Source: Acidobacteriota bacterium (GTDB lineage Bacteria; Acidobacteriota; Thermoanaerobaculia; Gp7-AA8). Taken from it: a stretch of 43,385 nt of DNA. The stretch is from the NCBI GenBank assembly GCA_003223635.1, contig QHVS01000110.1, positions 1 through 43,385 of the forward strand. The letters are read 5' to 3'. This document shows, piece by piece, positions 35,088 to 35,145 of the stretch. The notes under the pieces are model-generated. The model worked only from the letters and a program-made list of their open reading frames with translations, was not told where the DNA came from and ran no database searches. Numbering within the stretch: the first letter of the stretch is position 1; every line of letters begins with the position of its first letter. The position numbers and the translations under genes are program-made.

Positions 35088-35145
35088 GCGGCGAGCAGCG
35101 AGCAGCGAGCGGGCCATCTCCCGCTCGCTGCTCGCTGCTCGCCGC
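35088..35145. repeat. perfect 26-bp GC hairpin built from AGCGAGC/GCTCGCT heptamers
   Basis: 35088-35113 (GCGGCGAGCAGCGAGCAGCGAGCGGG) is the exact reverse complement of 35120-35145, with loop CCATCT. It lies between the stop of the FecR-like gene (35149) and mreB. Confidence 0.95.

Follow-up and report, generated by a model that had tools for sequence, protein, structure and literature searches.

Known heptanucleotide repeats and related elements

STRR (short tandemly repeated repetitive) sequences, which are heptanucleotide repeats, are said to have been described by Mazel et al. in 1990 in the heterocystous cyanobacteria Calothrix, Anabaena and Nostoc; PMC4692102 also refers to them. The elements considered here are like STRRs in having tandem 7-nt units, several families per genome, an intergenic location, many dispersed copies and an unknown function. 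They differ in occurring in Acidobacteriota as inverted pairs of ~4-5 units with 26-35-bp stems, in abutting stop codons, and in sharing their units with cassettes that carry a PF05635 gene.

Heptamer repeats have also been found in other bacteria. Geobacter metallireducens contains multicopy elements of four or five tandem heptanucleotides, among them GGACCGG (49 copies) and MTYCTGA (PMC2700814). The unit number, the tens of copies and the unknown function, for which a regulatory role was proposed, are all shared with the present elements; however, the Geobacter elements are single arrays or paired sites, some of them within genes, and neither a PF05635 link nor stop-adjacency was reported for them. 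GGGAATC repeats are present in Xanthomonas and Nostoc (PMC4692102), and TAACTGA repeats in Beggiatoaceae, Cyanobacteria and Bacteroidetes (PMC4679880). Both resemble the present elements as intergenic heptamer arrays, mostly between co-directional genes, whose length varies among close relatives; GGGAATC in Xanthomonas lies nearer the end of the upstream ORF, and TAACTGA in Beggiatoaceae just before start codons. Those arrays are direct repeats that have been read as G-quadruplexes or regulator sites, whereas here the arrays are inverted pairs of many unit families.

Two further kinds of element bear comparison. The 23S rRNA intervening sequences of Coxiella burnetii and Leptospira have a ~28-bp terminal inverted-repeat stem and strain-variable heptamers (PMC4990558); in Coxiella the terminal stem is 28 bp, RNase III cuts within it, and tandem heptamers vary in copy number. 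The likeness extends to a PF05635 ORF, which lies in the loop of this genome's full-length elements, and excision by RNase III serves as a mechanistic model. REP/REPIN-RAYT systems (PMC3116915) and MITEs are likewise short, non-coding, hairpin-forming and dispersed between genes, with gene-less copies outnumbering gene-bearing ones. In contrast, the present elements have tandem-repeat arms, show neither an associated transposase nor a target-site duplication, and in their gene-bearing form carry a four-helix-bundle protein rather than a nuclease or recombinase. A limited search of the literature found no paper on heptamer repeats in Acidobacteriota, or on heptamer repeats linked to PF05635 cassettes.

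The hairpin upstream of mreB

The window, which is the whole stretch of 43,385 nt that was analysed, contains, on the minus strand, a hairpin that separates a FecR-domain gene from mreB, and it has two other sites with heptamer repeats:

35149-36585, minus strand: upstream gene, 478 aa, with FecR and Glucodextran_B domains; TAG stop at 35149-35151
35120-35150, minus strand: 5' arm of the hairpin in the minus-strand RNA, A-GCGAGC G-GCGAGC A-GCGAGC A-GCGAGC GGG, four heptamer units
35114-35119, minus strand: loop of 6 nt, AGAUGG, which with the innermost stem makes the GGGAGRTGGCCC core
35088-35113, minus strand: 3' arm, CCC GCTCGCT GCTCGCT GCTCGCC GC, three complete units and a truncated fourth
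35073-35087, minus strand: predicted sigma-54-type element (-24 GG, -12 TTGCA), GGCAATCCTTTTGCA, directly 3' of the hairpin
33998-35023, minus strand: mreB, 341 aa, with its ATG at 35023; followed by mreC, mreD and PBP2
39070-39109, no strand assigned: short member of the GCGAGCR family, GGCGAGCGG / CCGCTCGCC(GCTCGCC), with a T-rich loop
40439-40503, no strand assigned: two other heptamer families in a divergent spacer, GAATGTT x4-5 and then TTCGAAC x3

An earlier note on this DNA had described a perfect 26-bp heptamer-periodic hairpin placed between the FecR-like gene and mreB, an extra unit reaching the upstream stop codon, and a following sequence that is not a clean U-tract; all of these stand. 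The two 26-nt arms, 35088-35113 (GCGGCGAGCAGCGAGCAGCGAGCGGG) and 35120-35145, are 100% complementary around the loop CCATCT (35114-35119, plus strand), and both have a period of seven (GCGAGCR / YGCTCGC). A fourth GCTCGC unit, at 35144-35149, enters the stop codon of the upstream gene (CTA on the plus strand, TAG on the minus strand), such that the first unit of the 5' arm overlaps the last two bases of TAG. The domain context confirms the position of the hairpin, whose end is 64 nt from the mreB ATG. The minus-strand RNA (141 nt) folds at -82.3 kcal/mol (z = -7.4), and 0 of 200 shuffled sequences were as stable; given 62% GC, the chance expectation for such perfect 26-bp inverted repeats is estimated at ~1e-9 per 43 kb.

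The tail 3' of the stem is GGCAATCCTTTTGC, which has no U-tract. An intrinsic terminator has its U-tract within 0-2 nt of the stem; here the stem is followed by GGCAAUCCUUUUGC. A simple terminator scan did not call the hairpin, a sigma-70 promoter scan gave nothing at this position, and no Rfam family matched anywhere in the window. The 26-bp perfect stem is comparable to the ~28-bp terminal stem of intervening-sequence-type cassettes (stems of the present family have a median of 35 pairs). Unlike intervening sequences, however, the mreB copy has a 6-nt loop with no S23p/PF05635 ORF between its arms, and it sits between two protein-coding genes, not in helix 45 of 23S rRNA.

The recurrence of the CCGCTCG unit at 39094-39107, also pointed out in the earlier note, is real and belongs to the short family member: CCGCTCGCCGCTCGCC (39094-39109) pairs with GGCGAGCGG (39072-39080). 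The loop of this member holds the overlapping stop codons of the convergent ORFs 38693-39085 (plus strand) and 39082-40428 (minus strand). Both ORFs read through an arm, perhaps since GCGAGCR has no stop triplet in any frame.

A genome-wide class of heptamer-armed hairpins

The assembly, from a soil acidobacterium of the Thermoanaerobaculia, is a fragmented MAG of 395 contigs (3.73 Mb, 93% complete) in which arrays lie at contig ends, and the repeat counts below are therefore lower bounds. The whole assembly contains 75 exact period-7 runs of GCGAGC, compared with a median of 2 for permuted cores. The genome-wide search for (AGCGAGC)n palindromes that the earlier note had proposed yields at least 16 loci of the form (GCGAGCR)~4 - loop of 12-35 nt - (YGCTCGC)~4; arms in the opposite order are essentially never found.

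GCGAGCR is one unit among many. Counting arrays of three or more units, the assembly has 370 period-7 arrays, compared with 79 of period 6 and 11 of period 8. These 370 arrays represent 41 unit types that fall into about 10 discrete unit families, the leading units being GAATGCA (123 arrays), GCGAGCR (45), GAGGGAT (44), TAACGGT (35) and GAACGAT (20). An inverted partner (at least 80% identity, within 160 nt) is present for 229 of the 370, compared with 4 in a reverse-only control, and the paired arrays collapse to about 138 hairpin loci. The class thus shares with STRRs the 7-nt tandem unit, the many dispersed copies and the several unit families. The longest perfect stem per hairpin has a median of 17 bp and a maximum of 32 bp. 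The idea that the 26-bp stem at mreB is exceptional was rejected: 17 of the 138 hairpins have perfect stems of at least 26 bp, among which the one at mreB is an ordinary case in the upper range. Nor is it special to mreB: GCGAGCR hairpins number at least 16, and those with heptamer arms of any kind about 138.

Some hairpins lie inside the loops of others. Nested or stacked hairpins of different families are seen at C57:12222-12418, C130:5160-5301, C251:3914-4132 and C12:466-591. Nesting suggests that hairpin loops and arm ends are preferred points of insertion or growth. A GAACGAT array of 19 units (C363:9486-9618) borders an assembly gap (a run of N) beside a PF05635 gene, and the mreB-orthologous spacer of a relative, L126, holds more than 30 GGTTRTC units; arrays can therefore grow far past 4-5 units. 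Long heptamer arrays probably break short-read assemblies. When repeated in tandem, the units GAATGCA, GAACGAT, GAGGGAT, TAACGGT and TAAGAGC contain a stop triplet and, because 7 is not a multiple of 3, arrays of these units close every reading frame within 21 nt. GCGAGCR and GTGCTCG have no tandem stop triplet.

Position of the hairpins relative to genes

With gene calls from a codon-usage model (3246 genes, 87% coding), nearly all heptamer hairpins are at gene boundaries. Measured over 95 co-directional spacers, the median distance from the upstream stop codon to the hairpin is 2 nt (10 nt or less in 72 of 95), and that from the hairpin to the next start codon is 16 nt. A hairpin is present in 5.3% of tandem and 6.7% of divergent spacers but in only 1.2% of convergent ones; the depletion from convergent spacers is five-fold (5/414 compared with 122/2189; Fisher p = 3e-5). 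No explanation so far fits both this depletion and the abutting of upstream stops in tandem spacers.

The stability of the stem in sense and antisense RNA was compared for the 90 hairpins that have a single adjacent 3' end. The sense stem is the more stable one in 42 and the less stable one in 46, with 2 ties (Wilcoxon p = 0.42), and there is no G.U asymmetry either. RNA-level selection is therefore not supported by strand asymmetry. A terminator role is unlikely, because the mreB hairpin lacks a U-tract, and members of the family end close to the next start (median distance 16 nt) within operons and are depleted from convergent spacers.

PF05635 genes between inverse heptamer arrays

The genome encodes five proteins of the PF05635 family (23S-rRNA intervening-sequence protein, Avd-like), and all five genes lie between inverse heptamer arrays:

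C222: arm unit TAGCTCT
C53: arm unit TTAACGG
C287: arm unit GGTTGCT
C363: arm unit GAACGAT, with 19 units on one side
C337: degenerate arm pair

One of the five proteins is also bAvd-like; among solved structures, those closest to it are 2gsc and 2rld, both deposited as five chains. The five further genomes that have the most GCGAGCR arrays contain 27 PF05635 genes, of which 15 have arrays on both flanks and another 6 on one flank. Among 19 cassettes, protein identity falls as the arm units diverge, being 0.62, 0.48, 0.38, 0.32, 0.27 and 0.20 at unit distances of 0 to 5 (Spearman -0.42; 0 of 5000 Mantel permutations reach this value). This shows that the PF05635 protein and its arms travel and diverge together, a pattern that recognition and co-inheritance could each produce. 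Neither the genome itself nor the five GCGAGCR-richest genomes yielded a PF05635 cassette with GCGAGCR arms; the nearest arm unit is GCGATCR, in G166.

An origin of the Avd-like genes from a DGR or other retroelement was considered and rejected, as the 93%-complete genome has no RVT_1. The hairpin elements could not be linked to any transposase, reverse transcriptase or target-site duplication.

It is possible, although we would lean against it, that a widespread and so far undescribed class of bacterial genetic element exists, with the heptamer-armed hairpins as its non-autonomous form. The autonomous form would be a PF05635 gene flanked by inverse heptamer arrays, whose protein would recognise its own heptamer, perhaps with one unit per protomer, and help to copy or maintain the arrays. 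One unit per protomer of a PF05635 pentamer would fit arms of 4-5 units.

Copies elsewhere and turnover at the mreB spacer

The GCGAGC-GGGAGRTGGCCC-GCTCGC core, with arms, is found again in the same genome at C207:3237-3302 (core at C207:3258). The GGGAGRTGGCCC core is also present in another genus (G343:C253:20685) and in the orthologous spacer of a relative, L093. Arms and loop are 88-92% identical over 62-67 nt at C210, C207 and G343:C253, and the flanks are non-homologous. Since arms and loop are common to unrelated loci, the hairpin including its non-repetitive loop is the copied unit. Four-unit GCGAGCR arrays occur in 7 of the 401 genomes of the class, with 27 in G000, 22 in G343 and 1-5 in each of the others.

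Comparison of orthologous spacers reveals turnover of the element. Two strains, L197 and L198, are both 99.4% identical to the window over 3.4 kb, and both have the hairpin. That of L197 is identical to the window's; in L198 two Y linker changes in one arm convert one pair to G.U and another to an A.C mismatch, and the density of substitutions within the hairpin is ~six times the flank rate. Relative to 35120-35136 of the window, the linkers change from (C,T,T,C) to (T,C,T,C), which are the sole differences within the hairpin. Rather than two point mutations, the pattern suggests that two neighbouring units were swapped or that another copy acted as the donor in a conversion. The earlier note had taken the perfect stem as a sign of either recent formation or strong selection: the perfect stem does suggest recent homogenisation, but the L198 changes, being non-compensatory, speak against strong selection for perfect pairing.

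The sister of the window, L091, whose flanking gene is 96% identical at the nucleotide level, lacks the hairpin, and its spacer is TAG-CGAGC-CAACC-GCGGCAAC. L091 is the nearest relative outside the species, and absence from close relatives was among the refuting conditions set by the earlier note; the empty spacer thus speaks against a required function. The more distant L093 (79% identical) has a GCGAGCR hairpin at the corresponding place, with a loop as in the window (GGGAGATGGC). Its arms are decayed, with several mismatches, and one of them has five units rather than four. L092, the sister of L093, has no hairpin, and the history of the mreB site can be explained with equal parsimony by two losses or by two gains. 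L117 has a GCGAGCR hairpin with a different loop where L111, L115 and L116 read TAGCG-CGGCAAC. In neither comparison of filled and empty sites (the window with L091; L117 with L116, L115 and L111) is a target-site duplication definable, because the palindromic ends make the junctions ambiguous. The C-terminal ...VEE* of the upstream gene and its stop codon are kept in relatives without the hairpin, and therefore the element did not supply the stop.

The spacer has been occupied by many other units as well. Period-7 arrays are present in 30 of 137 orthologous spacers and represent 32 different units; arrays of period 6 and of period 8 are each present in 4 spacers. All of the period-7 arrays lie between the stop codon and the next expression signal. 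Judged from these sequences, the mreB spacer is a recurrent host for heptamer elements, and the element is presumably dispensable for mreB.

A sigma-54-type motif between the hairpin and mreB

The GGCAATCCTTTTGCA element (GGCA-N7-TTGCA) lies ~50-65 nt upstream of the mreB ATG and fits the GG at -24, the GC at -12 and the spacing of TGGCAC-N5-TTGCW. Within 150 nt upstream of mreB, where shuffled sequences are expected to give 0.001-0.007 matches per locus, the strict motif GGC-N7-TTGCW is found in 24 of 42 close genomes, where it usually lies 60-69 nt before the start codon, and also in 42 of 59 metagenome spacers. A relaxed form of the motif is found in 38 of the 42 and 55 of the 59, respectively. 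The motif is found at mreB in none of the 36 more distant Thermoanaerobaculia genomes. The tail after the hairpin that is not a U-tract is thus a conserved, predicted sigma-54-type promoter element; rpoN is present in the genome. A sigma-54-dependent mreB operon would be unusual.

In the distant group L049-L085, whose MreB is about 80-84% identical, mreB starts with TTG right behind a strong RBS, GGAGG, and heptamer hairpins (for example, GTCAGTT x5 in L067) occupy the room between the upstream stop and the RBS. Because these hairpins lie directly before the mreB RBS, mreB must be expressed through them.

Proposed origin and role of the mreB hairpin

On balance, the mreB hairpin is probably a gene-less miniature copy of a dispersed heptamer-arm class related to PF05635 cassettes, a dispensable passenger and a likely substrate of RNase III. 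The architecture of this class is inverted arrays of ~4-5 tandem heptanucleotides around a short variable core; in its full-length relatives in this genome, similar heptamer arms enclose a PF05635 gene, encoding an Avd-like four-helix-bundle protein. The complete unit, arms and loop together, has been copied to unrelated sites, and copies pile up after stop codons, ahead of the signals that drive expression of the next gene. Slippage, conversion or palindrome correction would then remodel the arms one unit at a time and could keep or restore a perfect stem. The sequences themselves show the structure, its family membership, dispersal and turnover, the link to PF05635 cassettes and the promoter-like motif, whereas RNase III cleavage, the way of copying and any part played by the PF05635 protein are inferred. 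At the mreB locus, the element would be a passenger between the stop codon of the FecR-domain gene and mreB's own predicted sigma-54-type promoter. RNA reading through from the upstream gene would form the 26-bp perfect duplex, and cleavage by RNase III would uncouple the upstream message from mreB without termination of transcription. The suggestion in the earlier note that the hairpin insulates or processes the transcript is plausible through RNase III-type cleavage of this kind, by analogy with intervening sequences; rnc is present in the genome.

Several observations sit less easily with this origin. The nearest arm unit of a PF05635 cassette is GCGATCR rather than GCGAGCR, and the correlation between protein and unit can come from co-inheritance alone. 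Simple neutral insertion leaves the five-fold convergent depletion unexplained, the equal sense and antisense stabilities give no sign of RNA-level selection, and neither a transposase, a reverse transcriptase nor a target-site duplication was tied to the elements. In addition, gain and loss account equally well for the pattern at the mreB site.

Alternative explanations

The hairpin might instead be a terminator or insulator specific to this locus, selected to be perfect and parting the FecR-domain gene from the mreBCD-mrdA-rodA operon. Such a role would suit a very stable stem placed right after a stop codon and before the promoter-like motif of mreB, and the identical hairpin in L197 agrees with it. 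Nevertheless, we regard it as distinctly unlikely: the stem has no U-tract and the terminator scan was negative; the hairpin is missing from the closest relative outside the species and from most orthologous spacers; a strain 99.4% identical to the window tolerates a G.U pair and an A.C mismatch in the stem; family members lie within operons, where the median distance to the next start is 16 nt, and are depleted five-fold from convergent spacers (p = 3e-5); and in the distant relatives mreB has no promoter motif and follows such hairpins directly. The arrays could also be binding sites for a protein or an RNA-binding factor acting in trans, possibly a PF05635 pentamer, that modulates the downstream gene. 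Hairpins occur in spacers that lead into a gene start (5.3% of the tandem and 6.7% of the divergent ones) and seldom in those that do not (1.2% of the convergent ones), and the PF05635 protein co-diverges with the unit. The 4-5 units of an arm recall the five chains each of 2gsc and 2rld and the reported homopentamer of the Xanthomonas protein (PMC4990558), and a translational regulator was proposed for TAACTGA repeats (PMC4679880). Yet the flanking genes share no functional theme, the element appears dispensable at the mreB site, and the unit families are many when compared with only 4-5 PF05635 genes per genome, such that a binding-site role seems unlikely.

It is similarly improbable that the hairpins are not mobile at all and have each grown where they lie, out of a seed heptamer, by slippage during replication and by template-switch (quasi-palindrome) correction, with similar units arising at many loci by a mutational or protein-directed bias. 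The empty site of L091 already reads TAG-CGAGC, the number of units differs between the window (four) and L093 (five), L198 differs solely at the R/Y linkers at six times the flank rate, and heptamer over-representation has been ascribed to polymerase slippage (PMC4692102). Growth in place does not readily account for arms shared together with a non-repetitive loop by unrelated loci and genera, for units that also bracket PF05635 genes, for about 10 discrete unit families where a continuum would be expected, or for nested insertions. A REP/REPIN-type element mobilised by a RAYT (an IS200/IS605-like Y1 transposase) would likewise be a short intergenic palindromic repeat in many copies, and the genome has two Y1_Tnp genes; however, neither has a period-7 array within 1.5 kb, and the arms are tandem heptamers of many coexisting unit families, not a single imperfect palindrome. 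We give this origin very little credence.

Significance

For the annotation of genomes, the lesson is that such hairpins near essential operons are not to be read as dedicated terminators or attenuators. For over three decades, heptanucleotide repeats have been described one case at a time, with neither an origin nor a function assigned to them. The present genome is a clean system for their study, with about 10 unit families, about 138 hairpins and five gene-bearing cassettes, and one orthologous spacer is occupied by at least 32 different units across relatives. The co-divergence of PF05635 proteins and heptamers makes the link between protein and repeat directly testable. If the tentative reading of the hairpins as the non-autonomous form of a PF05635 element is true, it would give a common origin to STRRs, to the heptamers of Xanthomonas, Geobacter and Beggiatoa, and to ORF-bearing rRNA intervening sequences.
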